DNA of 7,153 nt from a virus (lineage: Duplodnaviria > Heunggongvirae > Uroviricota > Caudoviricetes). The stretch lies in IMG/VR virus record IMGVR_UViG_2657245112_000033. One strand, 5' to 3'. The position numbers and the translations under genes were made by a program. Under the pieces are notes generated by a model. The model saw only the letters and a list, made by a program, of their open reading frames with translations, searched no databases and had not been told where the DNA came from. Of the stretch, positions 1-7,153 are shown piece by piece (the first letter of the stretch is position 1; every line of letters starts with the position of its first letter).

Positions 1-162
1 TAGCTATAAATACATCTAAATACCTATATCCCTTCCCTTATGGCTAGATTGCGAGAAGTGCTTAACGCGATTTTCAGCGCCCCCCGATCTGGAAAATCCA
101 GAATCCCCAAATATCAGCAAGGAATTTTCTTGCGTAATCAACATCGTTTTTACCTATTAAAT

Positions 163-189
163 CATTACACAGAAAGCCTTTCTGTAATG
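163..189. repeat. Near-palindromic site carrying the ATTACACAG motif (ATTACACAGAAAG-c-CTTTCTGTAAT)
   Basis: 12-bp arms are reverse complements apart from one bulged base. The left arm contains the same ATTACACAG motif that recurs through 505-1900. Confidence 0.6.
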
Positions 190-442
190 TCTCTCACTAA
201 ACTTTCACTAAACACGAGAATGATCGGTTTTATGTCGGATCAGATGCTAGAAACAGCACCACGTCTCACAAGGGCTGTAAGCGATGAAACCAGTGTTTAT
301 GCGGGTGCAGGTCAAAATATAGGCCAAAATCCATTTAACATAATAATCGTAATATGCACTAAGGAACACATAGAACGCCTTGAGTTGATGTATCAGGGGA
401 AAAGTGATGGATTTTTTACGTAGGAGCACGAGAGGGCTTCTG

Positions 443-470
443 TTGACTTTTGTGTGCTATGAAATATAAT
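443..470 (+). promoter_or_regulatory. Sigma70-like promoter, TTGACT-16 bp-TATAAT
   Basis: TTGACT at 443-448 and a perfect TATAAT at 465-470 with a 16-bp spacer. It points rightward into the repeat region, where no ORF of 60 aa or more follows. Confidence 0.5.
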
Positions 471-504
471 TAAAAGTTTTTTGTTTTTATCGTGTGATGT
501 AGTG

Positions 505-951
505 GATTACACAGGGGAATAGATTAAATGGTGTTCTGTTTATACAGGTTTATTTGTTAGATCAACAATTTGGCATTTCTAAACAGATGTTTGAACGTTG
601 CCAAATGTCTTGACAACACAAGAAAAGGGCTTGCTATGCCACGCATTACACGAAATAAGGCTGTAAAAACAAAATAAATTTTAAAATTTGCACAAACAAG
701 AAAACTCATTAAGAAACAAGCAGAACAATTTTTAGCCAACAATTTCTGATGGTGCTCTGTAAGCCGCATTACACAAGGATTTGCGAAAGTGATGTAAAAG
801 TGAAGAAAGTAAGAATTGAACTTTTAAGCTACTTTTTTCATTGAATTTTTAGTATGGAATTACACAGGAATAAGTTAGGGATATTCTATGATTTACACAG
901 GGAATATAGGGGGGATTATGGCACACACATAGAAAGGCATTACACAGAGTG
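505..951 (+). repeat. Dispersed direct copies of the ATTACACAG(G)RAATA motif (6 copies)
   Basis: Copies at 505-522 (gattacacaggggaatag), 644-660, 767-780, 858-874 (aattacacaggaataag), 891-910 (atttacacagggaatatagg) and 938-951. All share the TTACAC core in the same orientation. Confidence 0.75.
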
Positions 952-966
952 CTATGTGACAAATGG

Positions 967-1072
967 ATGTAACGAGAGGTTACATTCAGCTATCTGAAAT
1001 GCTCTTTGTAAGAAAGTTGGTAGTAACGATATGTTACATAGACTAATTATTGAATGTAACGATATTACACAT
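967..1072. promoter_or_regulatory. Three tandem inverted-repeat operator-like sites (ATGTAAC-N5-GTTACAT)
   Basis: 967-985 atgtaac-gagag-gttacat (perfect 7-bp arms); 1021-1040 tagtaac-gatat-gttacat; 1054-1072 atgtaac-gatat-tacacat; plus a half-site at 1086-1095. The arm sequence GTTACAY is the TTACAC-family core. Confidence 0.55.
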
Positions 1073-1097
1073 CGGAAGATGATTGAATGTAACGGTA

Positions 1098-1138
1098 GCT
1101 CACAGTGAGCTAGGGGTAGGTCATAGTGAACTACCCCC
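1098..1138. repeat. 13-bp perfect palindrome GCTCACAGTGAGC plus about 1.5 units of the 22-bp iteron family
   Basis: gctcacagtgagc at 1098-1110 is its own reverse complement. It is followed by taggggta-ggtcatagtgaactac-ccccc, which matches the unit repeated at 1355-1436; ggggtag and ctacccc form a 7-bp inverted repeat. Confidence 0.7.
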
Positions 1139-1146
1139 ACAGAATT

Positions 1147-1198
1147 CTGTTACCCCTATCAAGTCTGATACCCCTATCAAAACTGATACCCGATAAGA
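1147..1198 (+). repeat. Three tandem 18-bp repeats (CTGWTACCCCTATCAA)
   Basis: ctgttacccctatcaag (1147-1163), ctgatacccctatcaa (1165-1180), ctgatacccgataag (1183-1197, degenerate); period 18 bp. Confidence 0.7.
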
Positions 1199-1208
1199 AT
1201 AAATAACA

Positions 1209-1309
1209 CCTAGGAAATGATTTCCGATCTATTTAGGAAGTAACCTAGGAAGTGGTTTCCTACCTACTTAGGAAATGAGTTCCTACCTACCTAGGAAATG
1301 AGTTCCACC
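1209..1309 (+). repeat. Four to five direct copies of a 15-bp motif TAGGAARTGRKTTCC, each with an internal GGAA-N5-TTCC inverted repeat
   Basis: Copies at 1211-1225, 1246-1260, 1269-1283 and 1292-1306 (the last two identical), plus a degenerate copy at 1234-1245; spacing mostly 23 bp. The architecture resembles plasmid centromere or iteron arrays. Confidence 0.7.
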
Positions 1310-1331
1310 AATACTATAATTAAATAATATA

Positions 1332-1354
1332 AATAATATTCTTTATACTATATA
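1332..1354 (+). repeat. 23-bp perfect direct repeat, copy 1 (aataatattctttatactatata), left of the iteron array
   Basis: Identical to 1482-1504. AT-rich and contains a TATACT -10-like hexamer. Confidence 0.85.
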
Positions 1355-1436
1355 GGTCACTGTGACCTAGGGGGTAGGTCATAGTGAGCTAGGGGGTAGG
1401 TCATAGTGAGCTAGGGGGTAGGTCACTGTGAACTAC
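1355..1436 (+). repeat. 22-bp tandem iterons, about 3.7 copies (GGTCAYWGTGASCTAGGGGGTA)
   Basis: Units at 1355-1376, 1377-1398 and 1399-1420 (the last two identical), plus a truncated unit at 1421-1436. The first unit contains the perfect 13-bp palindrome ggtcactgtgacc. AT-rich tracts lie on both sides. Confidence 0.85.
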
Positions 1437-1481
1437 AATAAGACTATTAATAAAACTATATTAGATTATTAATTAGATCAT

Positions 1482-1504
1482 AATAATATTCTTTATACTA
1501 TATA
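1482..1504 (+). repeat. 23-bp perfect direct repeat, copy 2, right of the iteron array and its AT-rich tract
   Basis: Exact match to 1332-1354; the flanking bases differ on both sides, so the repeat is exactly 23 bp. Confidence 0.85.
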
Positions 1505-1509
1505 TATAT

Positions 1510-1930
1510 GATCTTTTGCCTTCCGGCGTTAGCTTCACTCTCTGGCAAGCAGCCTTACTCCGCTACCTTTCGGGCTTCGTGGCTGGCCCGTTCCGCTCAC
1601 ACCGAAAGCAAAGCGTTACTTTCTTCGTGTAACTATCGTGGCGGTAACGCCCACGAAGAAATACTATTGCGCTGTGCGCAGAAGAGTAATCACCTAACCA
1701 ATCATACTGATTGCTTATGTGTAACTCTCTACCTCTTAATTCCACTTCCTACATTTAATAACTCTCGTTATTCTCTGTAGTTGTGTAATTACTCGAAGAG
1801 AGCGGCTAAAGCTCAATTACACTCTGCTTTCCTCGTGTAATTTCACTAAGCCTCAATACAATTTCACTTCCTACATTCTGTAGTCGTGTAATTGTTTTCG
1901 GTGGAAAAGCCAGAGGCGACACCGAAAGAG
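1510..1930. other. GC-rich island with dense hairpin potential; candidate structured RNA or single-strand DNA initiation element
   Basis: Visibly more GC-rich than its AT-rich flanks. Predicted stem-loops: 1621-1660 (outer ttcttcg/cgaagaa around a GC stem capped by a GUAA tetraloop), 1668-1680 (tgcgc-tgt-gcgca), 1749-1780 (ctaca...tgtag enclosing aataac-tctc-gttatt) and a shorter paralogous module at 1862-1893. The 7-mer ctctggc (1540-1546) is complementary to gccagag (1909-1915), and caccgaaag occurs at both ends (1600-1608, 1920-1928). Inverted TTACAC copies lie at 1626-1633, 1717-1725, 1782-1790, 1834-1843 and 1885-1893. Confidence 0.35.
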
Positions 1931-1962
1931 AATTCTGATCTTATTAATCTTATCTATCTTAG

Positions 1963-2001
1963 TTATCTTACTTACTTATCTTACTTACTTTATCTACTTT
2001 A
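1963..2001 (+). repeat. 13-bp tandem repeat (TTATCTTACTTAC, about 3 copies) inside a G-depleted AT-rich tract
   Basis: ttatcttacttac at 1963-1975 and 1976-1988, with a degenerate third copy at 1989-2001. The plus strand from about 1939 to 2020 contains almost no G. This could be a DNA unwinding element. Confidence 0.65.
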
Positions 2002-2515
2002 TTATTAATAATATCTTTATAAGCTCTGTGTAGCTCTCTGACGCAAGAAACAGCATTCAGGAAGGGAATCACCTTAGAAAAGTGTTCTTTGCGTCATAAT
2101 GTGTTTTATGAAGGATTCAGAGGTGTTTCATAACAGAGATGTATAGAGGATACTTTAGGTAATTAAAAATAAGGGGTCTAAATGCTTCTCTAACAACATT
2201 AAGCAGGGTAGGGAATGGAAACGCATTGCCTACATATAATAAACTCACTACAGGGCTTTACAGAGCGTTTTATAAAGTGACTCTCTGTTTTATATCTATC
2301 ATCATCTAACAAATACAAAATAAGCCACTTAAATAAGCCTCTGGCGAGCTAAACAGCCATTAGATAAGGGAATGTATTGCTTTTATCAAAATCTCGTTAG
2401 AACGCGTTTTAGAGCGTTTTAGACAATAAGGAAGAATAGCACTACATAGGAGAGCACGAATTGCTAAGAAAAAATGTAAGTGCATGAAAAAGATCAGATT
2501 TTTTATGAAAAGGTA

Positions 2516-2544
2516 TTGACAAATGTTTCTTTATATGTAATAAT
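2516..2544 (+). promoter_or_regulatory. Sigma70-like promoter with extended -10 (TTGACA-17 bp-TGt-AATAAT), probable promoter of the 2656-4950 operon
   Basis: TTGACA at 2516-2521, TG at 2536-2537, AATAAT at 2539-2544. The leader downstream contains a short hairpin (aagcc-gtca-ggctt, 2603-2616) and a T-run at 2625-2635 before the first ribosome-binding site. Confidence 0.55.
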
Positions 2545-2655
2545 AGGTATTAGAGGGACAGAAAAACATTCTTCTCTAAATAATCAAAATCAATGCACTT
2601 TGAAGCCGTCAGGCTTGCAAGGTGTTTTTTCTTTTAACTGAATAAGGAGTTTTTT

Positions 2656-2844
2656 ATGAAATGGTTTACACCTGAGCACGTCGTCCAGGCATTTAAAAAA
2701 GGTGAGCTTACACGCCACCAAGTAGTAATGAATCGTAATATGGCAAGGAGTCGAGGTTATCCAGAGCGAGCAGCTTGCTTCAATGAAGCACTCAAGATTA
2801 TTGATGAACTAAGAAAAAATGAAAAAGAATCTGAAACAGAGTAA
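2656..2844 (+). CDS. Hypothetical small protein (62 aa)
   Basis: ATG at 2656 preceded by AAGGAG (2644-2649); first gene after the predicted promoter; no family recognised. Confidence 0.6.
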   Translation: MKWFTPEHVVQAFKKGELTRHQVVMNRNMARSRGYPERAACFNEALKIIDELRKNEKESETE

Positions 2845-2863
2845 AGAAGAGAAGGAGAAAACT

Positions 2864-3034
2864 ATGAGCGAAACTACAGAAAAGAAAAGACAACCACGCA
2901 CTTGCTTTCATATTCCTGATGAAGTATTTCAGGTGTTATTTAAAGAAGCCAGAAGTAGACGGATCACTGTCACAGATTACATTCTTGATATGTTGAAAAG
3001 AGAGGCTGAAACACTCTCAAATAAAAGCAAGTGA
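2864..3034 (+). CDS. Ribbon-helix-helix-like (CopG/Arc-type) small DNA-binding protein, about 56 aa
   Basis: The track ORF is 2819-3034, but the ATG at 2864 has an AAGGAG site (2852-2857) and lies after the upstream stop (2842-2844), while 2819 has none. The segment RTCFHIPDEVFQVLFKEARSRRITVTDYILDMLKRE fits a strand-helix-helix pattern. Confidence 0.5.
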   Translation: MSETTEKKRQPRTCFHIPDEVFQVLFKEARSRRITVTDYILDMLKREAETLSNKSK

Positions 3035-3087
3035 TTTTTATCACCATAGTAGCGCCATAGAGCGTGATTACATCAAGGAGATTTTTA

Positions 3088-3780
3088 ATGATTAACCAAC
3101 TAACTTTTACAAAACACTATGACACGTTTGATAATGTATCAAAGATTTATTCTGATAAATTCCCTCAAGGAAAAGATTTAGATCTATTACATATTGTGCT
3201 TTATTTTCGATTCCTTAGTTATCAGGAAAACAACCTTAATTGTTATGAAAGTCACGAAACATTAGCTAAGATTTTTAAGTCTTCAGCGTCAACAATTAAA
3301 CGTAAGATAAACGATCTTAAAGAGATGGGATTATTAGAAACATCCCCACATCCTGATCCGTATATTTCATCTTTGATTTACAATGCTCTCCCTCTCACAG
3401 ATGCACATATTACTCCCCCAGGAGAATCATCACTCTCTGATCTTTCTGAGGCAGAAGAAGCACAGGAACAACCTAAAGGCCATAAACAGCCTTCTTTTGA
3501 TGTTCTTGATGATGATTGGGATACGCCTTTACCGTGGGAGACGGAAGAAACACCTGTTTCATCAAGTGAAAAGGTAGCTAATGATAATGAGGAGGATGTG
3601 TTAAAGAATTTTGCCTCTCTTATTATCAAGCAGAAGAATACTAGAACAGGAGGAGCATCATTTATAGAATTTGCAACATCGTTAGCCTATAAGCACAGGT
3701 TAAAGCTACCAAATGGTATTGAGGCATATTTTGCTAAGAAACATCCCAAAGTATACGAAGACTTTGATATTCCATTTTAA
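3088..3780 (+). CDS. Winged-HTH-like DNA-binding protein with acidic C-terminal region ending in an SSB-tail-like DFDIPF; possible replication initiator or organiser
   Basis: The track ORF starts at GTG 3064; the in-frame ATG at 3088 has AAGGAG at 3075-3080 with a 7-nt spacer. The N-terminal part (LHIVLYFRFLSYQENNLNCYESHETLAKIFKSSASTIKRKINDLKEMGLLE) fits a winged-HTH pattern. The C-terminal half is acidic (DDDWDTPLPWETEE) and the last residues are EDFDIPF. Confidence 0.7.
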   Translation: MINQLTFTKHYDTFDNVSKIYSDKFPQGKDLDLLHIVLYFRFLSYQENNLNCYESHETLAKIFKSSASTIKRKINDLKEMGLLETSPHPDPYISSLIYNALPLTDAHITPPGESSLSDLSEAEEAQEQPKGHKQPSFDVLDDDWDTPLPWETEETPVSSSEKVANDNEEDVLKNFASLIIKQKNTRTGGASFIEFATSLAYKHRLKLPNGIEAYFAKKHPKVYEDFDIPF

Positions 3781-3791
3781 TAAGGAGGGTT

Positions 3792-4070
3792 ATGATTCAA
3801 TATTTAGTAAAAAATCAAGTAGACAGAATTCAGTGTAACGACACAGGAAAACGCATCTACGAAACACTTGCTTACCTCTATAAAGGAAAGCCAACACCGC
3901 TAAAATATAGCGATGTGTTACATCGAGCAGGGTGCTCTGAAGATGGTTTAAAATTCTGGCTGAAACAGCTATCAAACTTCGGTGTTATAGAAATTAAAGA
4001 ATTATCTTTCTCTACATTCAATCTCAAAAGACTAGATAAAGAAATAGAATTCATCTATTCCACTCTCTAA
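3792..4070 (+). CDS. Small winged-HTH-like protein (92 aa)
   Basis: ATG at 3792 preceded by AAGGAGGG (3782-3789), 11 nt after the upstream stop. The segment IYETLAYLY...KYSDVLHRAGCSEDGLKFWLKQLSNFGVIEI follows the same helix-turn-wing pattern as the upstream protein. Confidence 0.65.
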   Translation: MIQYLVKNQVDRIQCNDTGKRIYETLAYLYKGKPTPLKYSDVLHRAGCSEDGLKFWLKQLSNFGVIEIKELSFSTFNLKRLDKEIEFIYSTL

Positions 4071-4111
4071 AATCTCTCTATGTAATTAAAATATAAAAGG
4101 AAAACATTATT

Positions 4112-4231
4112 ATGATAGTAGCTATGTATTGGTTATTGTTCTTTCTCACGTTAGAAACATACTTCGGGGTGTTTTCCTTTAAAAGAAAAGGAAAAGTAAA
4201 TAATGGCAAAAAGAAAAAACAACGTTGTTAA
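4112..4231 (+). CDS. Candidate small hydrophobic peptide (39 aa, MIVAMYWLLFFLTLETYFGVFSFKRKGKVNNGKKKKQRC)
   Basis: Not in the ORF track because it is under 60 aa. ATG at 4112 with AAAAGGA (4096-4102) upstream. One hydrophobic segment followed by a lysine/arginine-rich tail. Its 3' end overlaps the start of the next gene out of frame. Confidence 0.25.
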   Translation: MIVAMYWLLFFLTLETYFGVFSFKRKGKVNNGKKKKQRC

Positions 4232-4613
4232 GAAAATCGGGGATTCAGCTTCTCTTCTAAGTAAACCTAAATCTATTCTAAGACGCAAAGACTTTAAAGA
4301 GCTAGTTACGCTCACCAAGCAAAATAGCGCCCCTGGCGAATGGAAAACAGAGATCATAGAACATTCTCCCTCTGTGCCTTGCGGAGATGAATTTAACGCC
4401 TTACAAGAAATCTTATCTTCAACACCTGGCGTATTCTGGAAACCTAGAAAAAGAAAAGAGTATATCGTTGATAGCTCTGATTTACGCAAATACCAGATTT
4501 TAGGATTTGAAGACTATAACCACTACGTTGGTTATCTCGCCACAAATGGCCTAAATAACTTAGTTCCAGACTTCCAGATTCTAGATAATGCTGATCACTA
4601 TGGAGACTTTTAA
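4203..4613 (+). CDS. Hypothetical protein (136 aa) with basic N-terminus
   Basis: ATG at 4203 with AAGGA (4188-4192) upstream; the N-terminus MAKRKNNVVKK is basic; no family recognised. Confidence 0.6.
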   Translation: MAKRKNNVVKKIGDSASLLSKPKSILRRKDFKELVTLTKQNSAPGEWKTEIIEHSPSVPCGDEFNALQEILSSTPGVFWKPRKRKEYIVDSSDLRKYQILGFEDYNHYVGYLATNGLNNLVPDFQILDNADHYGDF

Positions 4614-4614
4614 T

Positions 4615-4950
4615 ATGAACAAAAACACGTATGACACAATTTACTCACTAATTAATTATTATGAGGATGATTACCTTCTGCCTTTAAACCGCGCTGAACT
4701 TGAAGCATACAAAGAAAACACACCAGCGTCACTAAATGAGGCGTTTAAACACTGGGATTTAGCTGTGAATGCCTTTGAGCACCTCTCTAAGCGTGTAGAG
4801 ATGCTCTGTAAGCGCGAAAACGCATACCTGACAGCCGATCAGATATGGGAGCTATCAAACTGGATAGAAGATATCGAATCTGATGTTCGCTATGTGGGAG
4901 ATGGACTTGTCGAACTCGCTCAACGCTTAGGCACTATCACAGAAGAATAA
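4615..4950 (+). CDS. Hypothetical protein (about 111 aa)
   Basis: The track ORF starts at 4588. In-frame ATGs at 4600 and 4615; the one at 4615 follows GGAG (4602-4605) and the upstream stop (4611-4613), so 4615 is preferred but uncertain. Confidence 0.55.
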   Translation: MNKNTYDTIYSLINYYEDDYLLPLNRAELEAYKENTPASLNEAFKHWDLAVNAFEHLSKRVEMLCKRENAYLTADQIWELSNWIEDIESDVRYVGDGLVELAQRLGTITEE

Positions 4951-4979
4951 AAAAAGCAACAAAAAAGTTGTAAAATATC

Positions 4980-5008
4980 TTGACATTCCATCTATTATAT
5001 GTTAATAT
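4980..5008 (+). promoter_or_regulatory. Sigma70-like promoter with extended -10 (TTGACA-17 bp-TGt-TAATAT)
   Basis: TTGACA at 4980-4985, TG at 5000-5001, TAATAT at 5003-5008. Same architecture as the promoter at 2516-2544. Confidence 0.5.
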
Positions 5009-5146
5009 AATTATATGGGGTGATTATTTTTCCTTTATTGGTTCGATATTAAAAATTCTTCTTGTCGTTAAAGGGGAGTAAAATCTCCGCTCCCCGCTTC
5101 TCCTCCTTAAGTAAATACTGTGTCATTATTACCTCTTTTTTCCTTT

Positions 5147-5176
5147 GTTATGCATACATCTTGGAGTATGCATAAC
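5147..5176. promoter_or_regulatory. Perfect 11-bp inverted repeat GTTATGCATAC-N8-GTATGCATAAC (operator-like)
   Basis: Arms at 5147-5157 and 5166-5176 are exact reverse complements. The half-site GTTATGCA recurs at 5242-5249 next to a second small inverted repeat (caactt-aa-aagttg, 5248-5261). Confidence 0.6.
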
Positions 5177-5205
5177 ATAGGGTAATTACATAGGTACAAG
5201 TTAAT

Positions 5206-5238
5206 AAAAGGCGGCTCTAAATGCTGCCTTTTATTTTG
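5206..5238. terminator. Rho-independent terminator hairpin, possibly bidirectional
   Basis: aaaaggcggc (5206-5215), loop tctaaat, gctgcctttt (5223-5232): about a 10-bp stem with one G-U pair, followed by ttttatttt. The A-run upstream gives a matching U-run on the opposite strand. Confidence 0.6.
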
Positions 5239-5299
5239 CCCGTTATGCAACTTAAAAGTTGTATTTCTTACTTTAAACAAGGTAACAAGGTTTATATAA

Positions 5300-5512
5300 A
5301 TGTTGTTCTTAAATGATAAAGAGCAAATCATCAAGTATAAAGATGAAATGCTGAAAATAAATCCACAAATTACCGAAATGGTAGCTAAATACGCTGGGTG
5401 TTCTGTAGAAGAAGTAGAAAGATGTGTTGAAAAATATTTTTCTCCTTCTTCTCCGTCTACACCTTCCCTTAATGAATTAATCAAATTAAAAGCTAAGGAG
5501 ATTACTAAATGA
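5300..5512 (+). CDS. Hypothetical small protein (70 aa)
   Basis: Its stop overlaps the next start (ATGA at 5509-5512), suggesting translational coupling. Weak ribosome-binding site (aagg near 5288). Contains a Ser/Pro-rich segment SPSSPSTPS. Confidence 0.5.
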   Translation: MLFLNDKEQIIKYKDEMLKINPQITEMVAKYAGCSVEEVERCVEKYFSPSSPSTPSLNELIKLKAKEITK

Positions 5513-5871
5513 TTATTGATTTAGACACTCTGTTTCCAGTTCGAAAGACTTTCACAGATATTGTAAGTTATTGTACTGATCCGTTTGCCTCTGTAGAAAG
5601 CAAGGTTTTTGCTTCTCTTCCTGCTGATGTTGAATGCGGCGACTTGATCACCAGCACTGGCGCTAAATATGTATCAGGAGATGATATCTATGTTGTTATG
5701 AGTGAATTTGTAACGGCTGGAGAAAACAAACCTGTAGATGTTTTACGTAGCAATGCTGGGCTTGTATGCATCAAAGCTGATGCGCTGAATGCTGTAAGTG
5801 AAGCAGCAAAAACAGCATTAATTAAAAAAGGCTTCCAGCTTGAAGGGTTCCATTCTGTTTTCACTTCTTAA
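5509..5871 (+). CDS. Putative head decoration or accessory head protein (120 aa), assigned by position only
   Basis: AAGGAG at 5495-5500, ATG at 5509. It sits immediately upstream of the major capsid gene, where lambda has gpD, but I see no clear sequence similarity to gpD. Confidence 0.55.
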   Translation: MIIDLDTLFPVRKTFTDIVSYCTDPFASVESKVFASLPADVECGDLITSTGAKYVSGDDIYVVMSEFVTAGENKPVDVLRSNAGLVCIKADALNAVSEAAKTALIKKGFQLEGFHSVFTS

Positions 5872-5889
5872 TAAAAGGAATAATAATAA

Positions 5890-6918
5890 ATGATTCTAGG
5901 CAATGATTACGTTGATTTGATCCCTCTGTTCCAGACACACAGCACGCGTAACTTCCTGCTCTCTACTCTTGATTTTACGGATTCTGTAGGGGTTACATCT
6001 CATAAAGTAGCTGTTTCCCAGCTTGTCGAAAGCAACGAATCTCTCTTTAACAAAGAGACAAGCCGTTTTAGTTCTGAACACAATGTTACTAAGCGAGAAC
6101 AAGGTAAAGAATGGCTGATCGAGATCCCTTACTTCCTGCGTGAAGATGTGATCCGTCCTTCTGATGTTCAAGGCAAACGTAAACCTGGCACTGATTTCCA
6201 GGAAACACTCACTGATATTTATGCGGAATATATCGCTAAACACCACGTAGCGTATCAGCGTACAAAAGAGAGCGTATTGGCTGCTTCTTTGTTCTCGGGC
6301 AAAACTTATACACCGAAAACTGATGATGTTCTTATCGAATGGGGCAAGCTGTTTAACGTATCAGCTATGAAAGCCACTGTGAACGCTTCCAGCACTGACA
6401 CCACGAAGATTTTTAAAGAATTTGATCAGATTGCTACTGACATTATCGAGAAAGCACAAAGCCAGGCGTCTGCTGTAGAGCGTATTGTTGTTTTCTGTAA
6501 ACCTGAAGCCTTCTCCGCAATTCGATTCTCTGCTGGTATGGCAAACGCATTCCAGTATGTAAGCCCACTGGAAGAGGGGAACGTTGTGTATCAGCGTCGT
6601 GACCTGCTGCCAGGGGTGACAGCGTTCACTATCCCAGGAACTAACATTGATGTTGTTAAACTGGTAGATCCGCTACACCTTGCACATATGACTTCTGATG
6701 CGGTTGCGATTCCGAAGTTTGCTAAAGGCTCTAATGTATATCAGAACATCTACGGGGCTGCTTCCAGCACTTTTGAACTGATCAATGCCGCTCCTGCTGA
6801 GGTGTATAGCTATAGCTATGAATCTTCTCGTGGTGATGCTGTTAACGTTGTTACAGAGAATAGCCAGATGGTTGTAAACCACGGTGTAGGCTTCTCCGTT
6901 CAAATCACTGTTAAATAA
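5890..6918 (+). CDS. Major capsid protein, lambda gpE family (342 aa)
   Basis: AAGGAA ribosome-binding site before ATG 5890. Length matches gpE (341 aa). Several segments resemble my recollection of lambda gpE: SVLAASLFSGKTYTPKTD vs AVSAVLKGKYTMTGE, ASAVERIVVFCKPEAFSAIRFS vs ASGVVNIIVFDPKGWALFRSF, DLLPGVTAFTIPG vs NFLPDNTMVLG, and C-terminal GFSVQITVK vs EFVSVQLA. Recalled, not aligned. Confidence 0.85.
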   Translation: MILGNDYVDLIPLFQTHSTRNFLLSTLDFTDSVGVTSHKVAVSQLVESNESLFNKETSRFSSEHNVTKREQGKEWLIEIPYFLREDVIRPSDVQGKRKPGTDFQETLTDIYAEYIAKHHVAYQRTKESVLAASLFSGKTYTPKTDDVLIEWGKLFNVSAMKATVNASSTDTTKIFKEFDQIATDIIEKAQSQASAVERIVVFCKPEAFSAIRFSAGMANAFQYVSPLEEGNVVYQRRDLLPGVTAFTIPGTNIDVVKLVDPLHLAHMTSDAVAIPKFAKGSNVYQNIYGAASSTFELINAAPAEVYSYSYESSRGDAVNVVTENSQMVVNHGVGFSVQITVK

Positions 6919-6958
6919 TATTTAACGTGTAATAGAGGCGTGGCGCTGAGAGATCCCC

Positions 6959-7153
6959 TCATAATTTCCCCAAAGCGTAACCATGTGTGAATAAATTTTG
7001 AGCTAGTAGGGTTGCAGCCACGAGTAAGTCTTCCCTTGTTATTGTGTAGCCAGAATGCCGCAAAACTTCCATGCCTAAGCGAACTGTTGAGAGTACGTTT
7101 CGATTTCTGACTGTGTTAGCCTGGAAGTGCTTGTCCCAACCTTGTTTCTGAGC
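6959..7153 (-). CDS. Possible 3' end of a convergent gene running off the window (C-terminal 64 codons, unknown function)
   Basis: The minus-strand frame entering at 7153 is open for 64 codons (...GMEVLRHSGYTITREDLLVAATLLAQNLFTHGYALGKL) and stops at 6959-6961. It is absent from the track because no Met start lies in the window. The composition is protein-like, but a chance open frame is not excluded. Confidence 0.3.
   Translation of the reverse strand, partial: AQKQGWDKHFQANTVRNRNVLSTVRLGMEVLRHSGYTITREDLLVAATLLAQNLFTHGYALGKL

Follow-up and report, generated by a model that had tools for sequence, protein, structure and literature searches.

A polar TTRCAY word in mirror-image arms around the Rep-iteron core of a putative satellite replication origin in Escherichia coli

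Introduction

What does a short, oriented word do that is scattered over 1.7 kb of gene-free DNA, and which factor reads it? The question is raised by a 7,153-nucleotide stretch of DNA classified as viral (IMG/VR record IMGVR_UViG_2657245112_000033; Caudoviricetes), which is called the window throughout. The window is the left part of a chromosomal island of about 12.4 kb, and its positions 1-6940 are 100% identical to this island in many Shiga-toxigenic Escherichia coli strains. In its noncoding region, upstream of a gene for a protein that matches replication-initiator families (Rep), the consensus A-TTACAC-R recurs many times. In this study, we observed that this repetition is genuine, that it departs from chance and has a polarity, and that the motif is under selection within the replication-control region of a putative satellite. 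The copies form two mirror-image arms that point at an origin core of Rep iterons and AT-rich DNA. As judged from related loci, the arms persist while the core iterons and the DNA-binding domain of Rep are swapped, and diverged relatives show the same mirror layout built from a shifted core (TTGCAC, TTGCAT), the signal from outside Escherichia being no more than suggestive. Our preferred explanation, to which we assign a probability of about 40%, is that TTRCAY has been selected as an accessory element of the satellite origin that works in an orientation-dependent manner and is read by a factor other than the variable domain of Rep.

Sequences compared

About 45 relatives were compared, namely 5 E. 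coli loci, 1 locus of an Escherichia sp., 25 IMG/VR loci found by a conserved DNA pattern, and 14 loci from Klebsiella, Leclercia, Enterobacter or E. coli found via the 62-amino-acid (aa) and 136-aa proteins of the island. The noncoding DNA of the other genera is largely unalignable to the window, and the relaxed word TTRCAY was used there. The phAPEC8-like phages referred to below are the Stephanstirmvirinae, with Justusliebigvirus and Phapecoctavirus.

Results

Abundance and orientation of the motif

TTACAC occurs 18 times in the whole window, compared with 3.85 ± 1.8 times in dinucleotide shuffles, and RTTACACR 13 times against an expectation of 0.76. Within positions 163-1893, where TTACAC is the commonest 6-mer, 14 exact copies stand against 1.35 ± 1.14 under a first-order Markov model (at most 6 in 3000 runs). 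The other 5 kb of the island hold 4 copies, which is background, and the copies inside genes as well as the one at 6927 occur at chance frequency. The preliminary description of this DNA had claimed a frequency far above chance, and this is borne out; its figure of about 20 copies, however, is inflated and is reached only when TGTAAC-N5-GTTACA palindromes (964-1098) are added. Those palindromes, presented there as motif pairs at 967-1072, are a separate repeat that, in relatives, co-varies with Rep types c24/c45. The eight direct and five inverted copies that had been located are all correct; the + strand copy at 1817-1822 had been overlooked (Table 1).

The copies are strongly polar. Left of the iteron core, eight lie on the + strand and none on the - strand, whereas one + and five - copies lie to its right (Fisher p = 0.003), which confirms the earlier remark that the orientation switches around the iteron region. 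The sequences flanking the copies agree at 9-10 of 30 positions, compared with 8.1 expected, and the information is confined to roughly A-TTACAC-R. Therefore, the copies are independent short sites and not parts of one longer duplicated segment. They are separated by 342, 139, 123, 91, 33, 47 and 125 bp in the left array and by 92, 64, 52 and 51 bp in the right one, over a total span of 1.7 kb. Of the earlier proposal that one DNA-binding protein occupies many sites, the independent sites with a conserved core thus stand; a single reader may be proposed.

Table 1. Motif copies, repeats, hairpins and other located features. Positions refer to the window unless a locus is named.
Feature	Position	Strand	Remark
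Motif copy ATTACACA	164-171	+	outermost left; left of Xer-type site
XerCD-type dif/cer-like site AGTGCATATTA-CGATTA-TTATGTTAAAT	333-360	-	
Motif copy ATTACACA	506-513	+	at homology breakpoint with relatives L003 and L004
Motif copy ATTACACG	645-652	+	
TTGCAC variant copy	688-693	+	
Motif copy ATTACACA (site A)	768-775	+	relatives vary: CTACAC, TAACAT, TTACAT
Motif copy ATTACACA (site C)	859-866	+	GGAATTACA invariant in both E. coli clades; final base C/T
Motif copy TTTACACA (site D)	892-899	+	in clade I and L005; missing from rest of clade II
Motif copy ATTACACA (site E)	939-946	+	innermost left; TTGCAC at same position in clade II
Variable origin core	955-1505	.	AT-rich DNA and stacked iteron arrays
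TGTAAC-N5-GTTACA palindromes (repeat family 3)	964-1098		core; co-vary with Rep types c24/c45
TTACAC	1065-1070	+	half of a TGTAAC-N5-GTTACA palindrome
22-bp palindromic repeats TAGGTCAnnnTGAnCTA (repeat family 1)	1094-1137, 1351-1439		core; own Rep type of the window's element
18-bp repeats	1146-1191		core
23-bp repeats	1208-1306		core
Repeat family 2, ACAGAAnnCTGTTA			tracks Rep cluster
Repeat family 4, GATACCCCTATCAA			tracks Rep cluster
Repeat family 5, CCTAGGAAATGAGTTCC			tracks Rep cluster
Right module	1505-1925	+	G+C-richer, non-coding, strongly structured as single strand
Motif copy GTTACACG (R1)	1626-1633	-	5' arm of hairpin 1620-1629/1652-1661; TTGCAC at same position in clade II
Motif copy GTTACACA	1718-1725	-	only in the window's element and L030
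Hairpin H1	1738-1790	+	AATTcCAC...GTGTAATT; two compensatory pair changes compared with Leclercia
Motif copy	1782-1789	-	3' arm of H1
Hairpin H2	1815-1842	+	AATTACAC-N12-GTGTAATT; perfect 8-bp stem
Motif copy	1817-1822	+	in 5' arm of H2
Motif copy (R4)	1834-1841	-	3' arm of H2
Hairpin H3	1858-1895	+	ACAATTtCAC...GTGtAATTGT
Motif copy	1885-1892	-	3' arm of H3
Own tape-measure-like and Dit-like genes	L001 19221-21798		island part right of the window

The two arms in related loci

The noncoding region falls into four parts: a conserved left module (about 500-955), the variable core, a right module that extends from 1505 to about 2300, and a promoter-leader-terminator unit that precedes the first gene of the island. 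The right-module anchor is present in 32 Escherichia loci, and the opposed arms are seen in every one of them; TTRCAC occurs there 229 times on the + and 24 times on the - strand to the left of the anchor, and 14 times on the + and 113 times on the - strand to the right, counts that are not independent, as the 32 loci represent only two clades. Clade II differs from clade I in every gene downstream of rep, and its right-hand copies as well as its innermost left copy read TTGCAC instead of TTACAC. Site E, the innermost left copy, and R1, the first right one, switch from A to G together between the clades. In the left module, motif columns are more conserved (0.925 identity) than their surroundings (0.757; P about 0.007).

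Outside Escherichia, TTRCAY was counted left and right of the core. The + to - ratios are 6:0 and 1:3 in Klebsiella locus L063 and 4:0 and 1:3 in Klebsiella locus L060, while Enterobacter locus L068 has four + copies followed by five - copies and L070, of the K. michiganensis type, three followed by five. Enrichment over coding DNA is modest in these genera (1.2-3.8-fold), and the mirror polarity is suggestive only.

Opposed, dispersed sites are known from the E. coli terminus, which is surrounded by Ter sites at which Tus blocks forks in a polar manner. A protein bound to the arms might likewise stop forks, helicases or RNA polymerase that approach the core from outside, and insulate the origin. 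The mirror-image arms, with several dispersed back-up sites each, match Ter geometry, the strand counts fit, and a likeness to the Ter core is seen in the copies at 1627 and 1719 (TGTAACT within GTGTAACT). However, the Ter core GTTGTAAC has no match in the window, where GTGTAAT is the usual form of the copies; there is no gene for a Tus-like protein, and no obvious need for a fork trap was found for a 12-kb replicon. We consider a polar barrier quite improbable.

The copies might also have no function of their own and be remnants of earlier duplications, or short homologies that serve recombination between modules. In BLAST comparisons of relatives, homology blocks frequently stop at a motif copy (window 500/513, 871, 898, 938 and 1078). 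In locus L009, a deletion (about 5990-6060) fuses hairpin unit H1 to H3 and removes H2 with its R4 copy; therefore, the repeated hairpin units recombine and are individually dispensable. Against such a passive role, only the core is common to the copies, their flanks being random, the core is more conserved than its surroundings, and polarity is kept in relatives that cannot be aligned. A lack of function is thus highly improbable.

Rep, its iterons and the motif

Rep is modular, with a variable N-terminal winged helix-turn-helix (wHTH) domain and one of two C-terminal types. Rep clusters co-vary with five repeat families (Table 1). The core of the window stacks arrays for four Rep specificity types, of which only the 22-bp palindromes fit its own Rep cluster. 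TTRCAC, by comparison, is kept across at least 10 Rep sequence clusters and together with all five repeat families, even where the N-terminal domains are only 24-55% identical and each has its own iterons. The word does not co-vary with the DNA-binding domain of the initiator, nor does the TTACAC array consist of regular or tandem repeats beside an AT-rich unwinding region. Since it does not follow the Rep type, TTRCAC does not behave as the iteron of the initiator, which the preliminary description had put forward as a possible reader.

The motif could still serve as a secondary, low-affinity site for Rep, within an array for copy control or handcuffing such as P1 incA or P4 crr. Its copies adjoin the iterons of a Rep-type initiator, and the two C-terminal forms of Rep track the TTACAC and TTGCAC clades. 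However, all late genes do the same; on sequence evidence, the association of the A/G variant with the Rep C-terminal type amounts to one split between lineages and is confounded with all genes that lie downstream of rep. The motif is also unlike all five iteron families and, as stated above, outlasts exchanges of the N-terminal domain. Secondary Rep sites are therefore very improbable.

At the left edge of the noncoding region, exactly one of three items was found in each relative with enough left-hand sequence. The Xer-type site, whose XerD arm we take to be the same as that of dif, is present in 12 loci; a serine recombinase of about 180 aa occupies the place in 17 IMG/VR and E. coli loci and in L072, and a tyrosine recombinase of 181-205 aa in L005, L073, Klebsiella, Enterobacter, Leclercia and L070. 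This edge has the look of a module for multimer resolution that comes in three interchangeable versions. The idea that the neighbouring recombinases drive a shufflon or an invertible segment was rejected, as block order and orientation are the same in all relatives, and the position of the recombinases is better explained by multimer resolution. A small open reading frame (ORF) over the copies at 854-997 was also rejected because relatives carry a stop codon in it.

The right module and its hairpins

The right module is non-coding, as relatives carry single-base indels in it. It folds far better than shuffled sequences (z = -5.1 for the + and -7.5 for the - strand), whereas no significant structure is seen in the left module (z = -1.5). 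Three hairpins with AATTnCAC/GTGTAATT stems have the copies at 1783, 1835 and 1886 as their 3' arms. In H1 and H3, pairing is kept by two compensatory double substitutions each in comparison with the Leclercia/K. michiganensis type, and G.T wobbles are valid only on the + strand. An RNAalifold consensus of E. coli and Leclercia has 65 pairs, 8 of them with compensatory double changes, including the two each in H1 and H3; it covers two lineages only. The preliminary description had not recognised these three right-hand copies as hairpin arms; in H1 and H3, pairing rather than sequence appears to be conserved. The copy at 1719 is not a conserved site either: of the 14 aligned clade I loci, 13 have GTGTTAAC instead, and the only other locus with the copy, L030, is known from the site map. 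The context of R4, GGCTTAGTGAAmTTRCAC, is kept as sequence in Klebsiella and Leclercia, while the 5' arm of H2 is not. Judged by these comparisons, the right arm is heterogeneous, with some copies acting as stems and at least one as a sequence site.

These features raise the possibility that the motif functions as a single strand. The right module would then be a structured + strand RNA or unwound DNA with GUGUAAU stem arms, and the left copies (AUUACAC) would lie on a transcript from a strong promoter at 443-470, as complementary decoy or antisense blocks or as long-range pairing arms that regulate the right-hand RNA. This RNA might serve as a primer, in copy control or in an immunity-type role. 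The folding and the compensatory changes favour this explanation, as do the near-consensus promoter TTGACT-16-TATAAT (443-470), which fires into the left arm, and the joint A/G change of left and right copies between clades. Abundant non-coding RNAs are also described for the PLE satellite and its phage in the parts of PMC7567579 used here. However, inverted copies are complementary by definition, and co-variation of left and right cannot discriminate between the explanations. The left module lacks significant structure, and the covariation comes from the two lineages mentioned. In K. michiganensis and Leclercia the hairpin arms read GTGCTATT and GTGCTAATT, and no complement (e.g. ATAGCAC) is among the exact TTRCAY matches listed for the left part. 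Further, no Rfam family matched the region, a search for a sigma-70 promoter of the right module gave no good candidate, and the 443-470 promoter is missing in relatives that carry a recombinase gene there. TTAGAT-17-TACTAT (1473-1501) is not claimed as a right-module promoter, as its -35 element matches the consensus at only 2 of 6 positions. Taken together, we view a single-strand function as doubtful, although it is the main rival of an accessory element.

Candidate readers

Several functions that are commonly served by repeated words were considered. The copies might be -35 hexamers of host-type promoters directed at the origin, or a word with a promoter or regulatory function in the helper phage. 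TTGCAC and TTGCAT share TTG with the -35 consensus, and sites C and D are followed by a -10-like hexamer at a distance of 16-17 bp. However, such a hexamer follows at 16-18 bp in only 7.7% of 222 unique TTRCAY contexts, compared with 10.3% of controls, and the -35 reading was rejected. The helper-phage word was rejected as well, because TTACAC has background density (0.56 per kb) and no cluster in positions 1-50,000 of phage Mt1B1_P17, one third of one phage genome. Promoter elements of either kind are largely refuted, and we give them hardly any weight. A repressor-operator role, suggested earlier, finds no support in the positions of the three strong promoters, none of which overlaps a copy. 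The DnaA box TTWTNCACA is missing from the island; its sole match in the window (6986-6994) lies in the IS10 part.

A partition function had also been proposed. Scans of 13 proteins of the island matched no partition NTPase of the ParA/ParM type; library coverage was incomplete for three small ORFs, the 52-aa ORF having been compared with PHROGs alone and the 127-aa ORF with libraries other than NCBIfam. The alleles c1, c3 and c16 of the ribbon-helix-helix-like (RHH) protein occur in both the TTACAC and the TTGCAC clade; therefore, the word variant does not track the RHH allele, as would be expected of a centromere. For the same reason, the RHH protein is unsupported as the binder, and so is the 62-aa protein, whose alleles are likewise shuffled over both clades. 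Five clade II relatives retain the array but lack the 92-aa wHTH protein (3792-4070), another candidate of the preliminary description. The 62-aa protein occurs universally, with conservation across genera, and its model is a confident three-helix bundle with only generic structural neighbours; the 136-aa protein is universal too, with a low-confidence model (pLDDT 53). PDB sequence searches returned no match for candidate binders, and neither they nor co-variation or structure models identified a motif-binding protein.

The island and its link to phAPEC8-like phages

Of 5426 complete E. coli genomes, 739 have a relative of the island, and further relatives occur in Klebsiella, Enterobacter and Leclercia. 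The island of strain E2865, about 12.4 kb long, is bounded by tRNA-Thr (thrW) and a tyrosine integrase. It starts with about 2.6 kb without annotated genes, followed by the 62-aa protein, the small RHH protein, the 230-aa HTH_36 protein, several small ORFs, the major capsid protein, a 609-aa tape-measure-like protein and a Dit-like tail protein. The 230-aa protein, Rep, matches the HTH_36, PHROG initiator, O-like and DnaD-like families. At 6938-7153, the window ends in an IS10/Tn10 (ISVsa5) end that is inserted directly 3' of the capsid gene, where intact islands have a 67-aa gene.

The Dit-like protein (tail-tube initiator) is 59-62% identical to its counterpart in the phAPEC8-like phages of about 147 kb, and the tape-measure-like protein 35%. 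The capsid protein has only about 25% identity to Pseudomonas phage capsids; a search of genome contigs with it returned a single locus. No portal, protease or terminase family matched among the 13 proteins scanned. At the DNA level, identity with Stephanstirmvirinae phages is seen in stretches of 42-46 bp at window 43-88 and 3054-3095. Because of the tail-protein identities and these short, nearly identical DNA stretches, we infer that the island is probably a satellite of Stephanstirmvirinae phages. Literature searches for the island, its protein accessions and satellites of phAPEC8-like phages found no description.

The 46 bp at window 43-88 are 93-97% identical to part of an ORF-less, repeat-rich region of about 1.5 kb in Stephanstirmvirinae, e.g. 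in phage Antha, and 74% conserved in the Klebsiella relative L063 (4293-4342). They could be a shared regulatory, RNA or packaging signal. The ORF-less region of Antha (L008 3065-4195) also has several copies of the Fur-box-like AATGATTATCATTTGCAT and TATAAATA-type words, and TAGCTATAAATA, found in it, recurs as window 1-12. The second stretch, 3054-3095, comprises the rep 5' untranslated region and first codons; its 42 bp are identical to a gene start of phage Mt1B1_P17 (QNJ49226), and the gene encodes a protein with two wHTH domains that is a distant relative of Rep. This identity suggests a translational or regulatory control common to island and helper.

Other features of the island vary or recur among its parts. 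The stretch between attL and the noncoding region differs among relatives (GmrSD, DUF4145 and HTH genes) and resembles a cargo or defence hotspot, and in some Klebsiella relatives a Dam-family methyltransferase gene lies within the otherwise gene-free region (L060 4285-4974). Two operon starts, at window 2516-2634 and 4980-5238, have the same layout: a near-consensus promoter (TTGACA-17-AATAAT and TTGACA-17-TAATAT, respectively), a leader, a T-run hairpin and the first gene. The hairpins read as intrinsic terminators, although a terminator scan listed neither, and the arrangement suggests control by antitermination or attenuation.

Discussion

How could an accessory word work at such an origin? 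The reader of TTRCAY might be a conserved satellite protein, the clade-specific C-terminal part of Rep, or a replication protein of the host or helper. Bound to the opposed arms, it might organise or permit initiation at the core once the helper has infected the cell. Several right-hand copies would lie in + strand hairpin stems, on what is presumably the lagging-strand template of a rightward fork, and unwinding could present the same duplex sequence in these stems, as in hairpin-borne primosome assembly sites. An accessory role and a single-strand function can be combined, in that a duplex-reading protein would see the same sequence in duplex DNA on the left and in hairpin stems on the right, as at plasmid hairpin "A sites" with a DnaA box. 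It is tempting to speculate further that the polar word loads or orients a helicase or primase of helper or host, as duplex on the left and as + strand stems on the right, beside a freely exchangeable initiator. Helper specificity would then sit in the conserved arms and not in Rep. We consider such a capture of the replisome unlikely.

Several observations weigh against an accessory element. Single sites are not strictly conserved, with sites A, B and D varying or lost, and left-module words such as AAAAGTGAAGAAAG are conserved even better than the motif. Outside Escherichia and Enterobacter, enrichment is weak (1.2-3.3-fold), and the core boundaries of L068 and L070 were placed by eye; that of L070 was later confirmed by iterons, while L068 has no detectable iterons. 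The irregular spacing (33-342 bp) and an array more than 1 kb from the core are unusual for origin accessory sites. Moreover, two right-hand positions in Leclercia keep pairing and lose TTRCAC, which suits a structural role better than sequence readout.

Known systems offer partial parallels. E. coli oriC has oppositely oriented arrays of DnaA boxes, asymmetric 9-bp sites of graded quality, within about 250 bp. Like these, the motif forms asymmetric, graded sites in opposed arms that flank the initiation region, with weak sites being replaceable, and the arms may be likened to the arrays on either side of the oriC unwinding region. Unlike them, the word is not TTWTNCACA, and its copies lie 33-342 bp apart over 1.7 kb. 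SaPI origins have short Rep-specific iterons in two sets that flank an AT-rich region. They share with the island a satellite origin and many copies of a 6-8-bp word on either side of an AT-rich stretch; however, the SaPI iterons are Rep-specific, whereas the island word is Rep-independent and separate, longer iterons carry Rep specificity. Plasmids use primosome or single-strand initiation signals such as the DnaA-box hairpin "A site", n'-pas and G sites. The right module resembles these as a stable hairpin cluster a few hundred bp from the origin, on the presumed lagging-strand template, and with a protein-recognition word predicted inside its stems. It differs in that the word is not a DnaA box and that the left arm has no matching hairpins.

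The closest mode of working is found in PLE, a satellite of Vibrio cholerae whose helper is the lytic myovirus ICP1. According to the parts of the two papers used here, PLE is integrated and has a modular Rep/iteron origin in a gene-free region of 2.6-3 kb (PMC8263062, PMC7567579). The N-terminal DNA-binding domain of its initiator is exchanged together with the iterons, as observed for the island, while the C-terminal part is conserved (PMC8263062). Parts of the noncoding region are conserved independently of replicon type, as in the island; non-coding RNAs are prominent, and the helper phage has an ORF-less region of its own (PMC7567579). However, there is no sequence or protein homology, the PLE RepA being RepA_N-like and the island Rep HTH_36/O-like, and the same parts of both papers mention no dispersed polar hexamer array (PMC8263062, PMC7567579). 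The island, whose helper dependence is presumed, also has its own capsid, tape-measure and tail-tube-initiator genes. The likeness is one of working mode, not of homology.

Conclusions

The origin region separates two layers of specificity, an exchangeable Rep/iteron cassette and conserved polar arms. If the motif provides only accessory sites or RNA stems, this would be ordinary origin architecture in a new element. If the arms couple replication to the helper or host, this would explain how the initiator can be swapped so freely, perhaps under attack by phage nucleases, as reportedly shown for PLE and Odn, and the arms would provide a simple sequence signature for the origins of this family. 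The island family is common and apparently undescribed, and the large lytic phAPEC8-like phages on which it seems to be a parasite are used in phage therapy collections.

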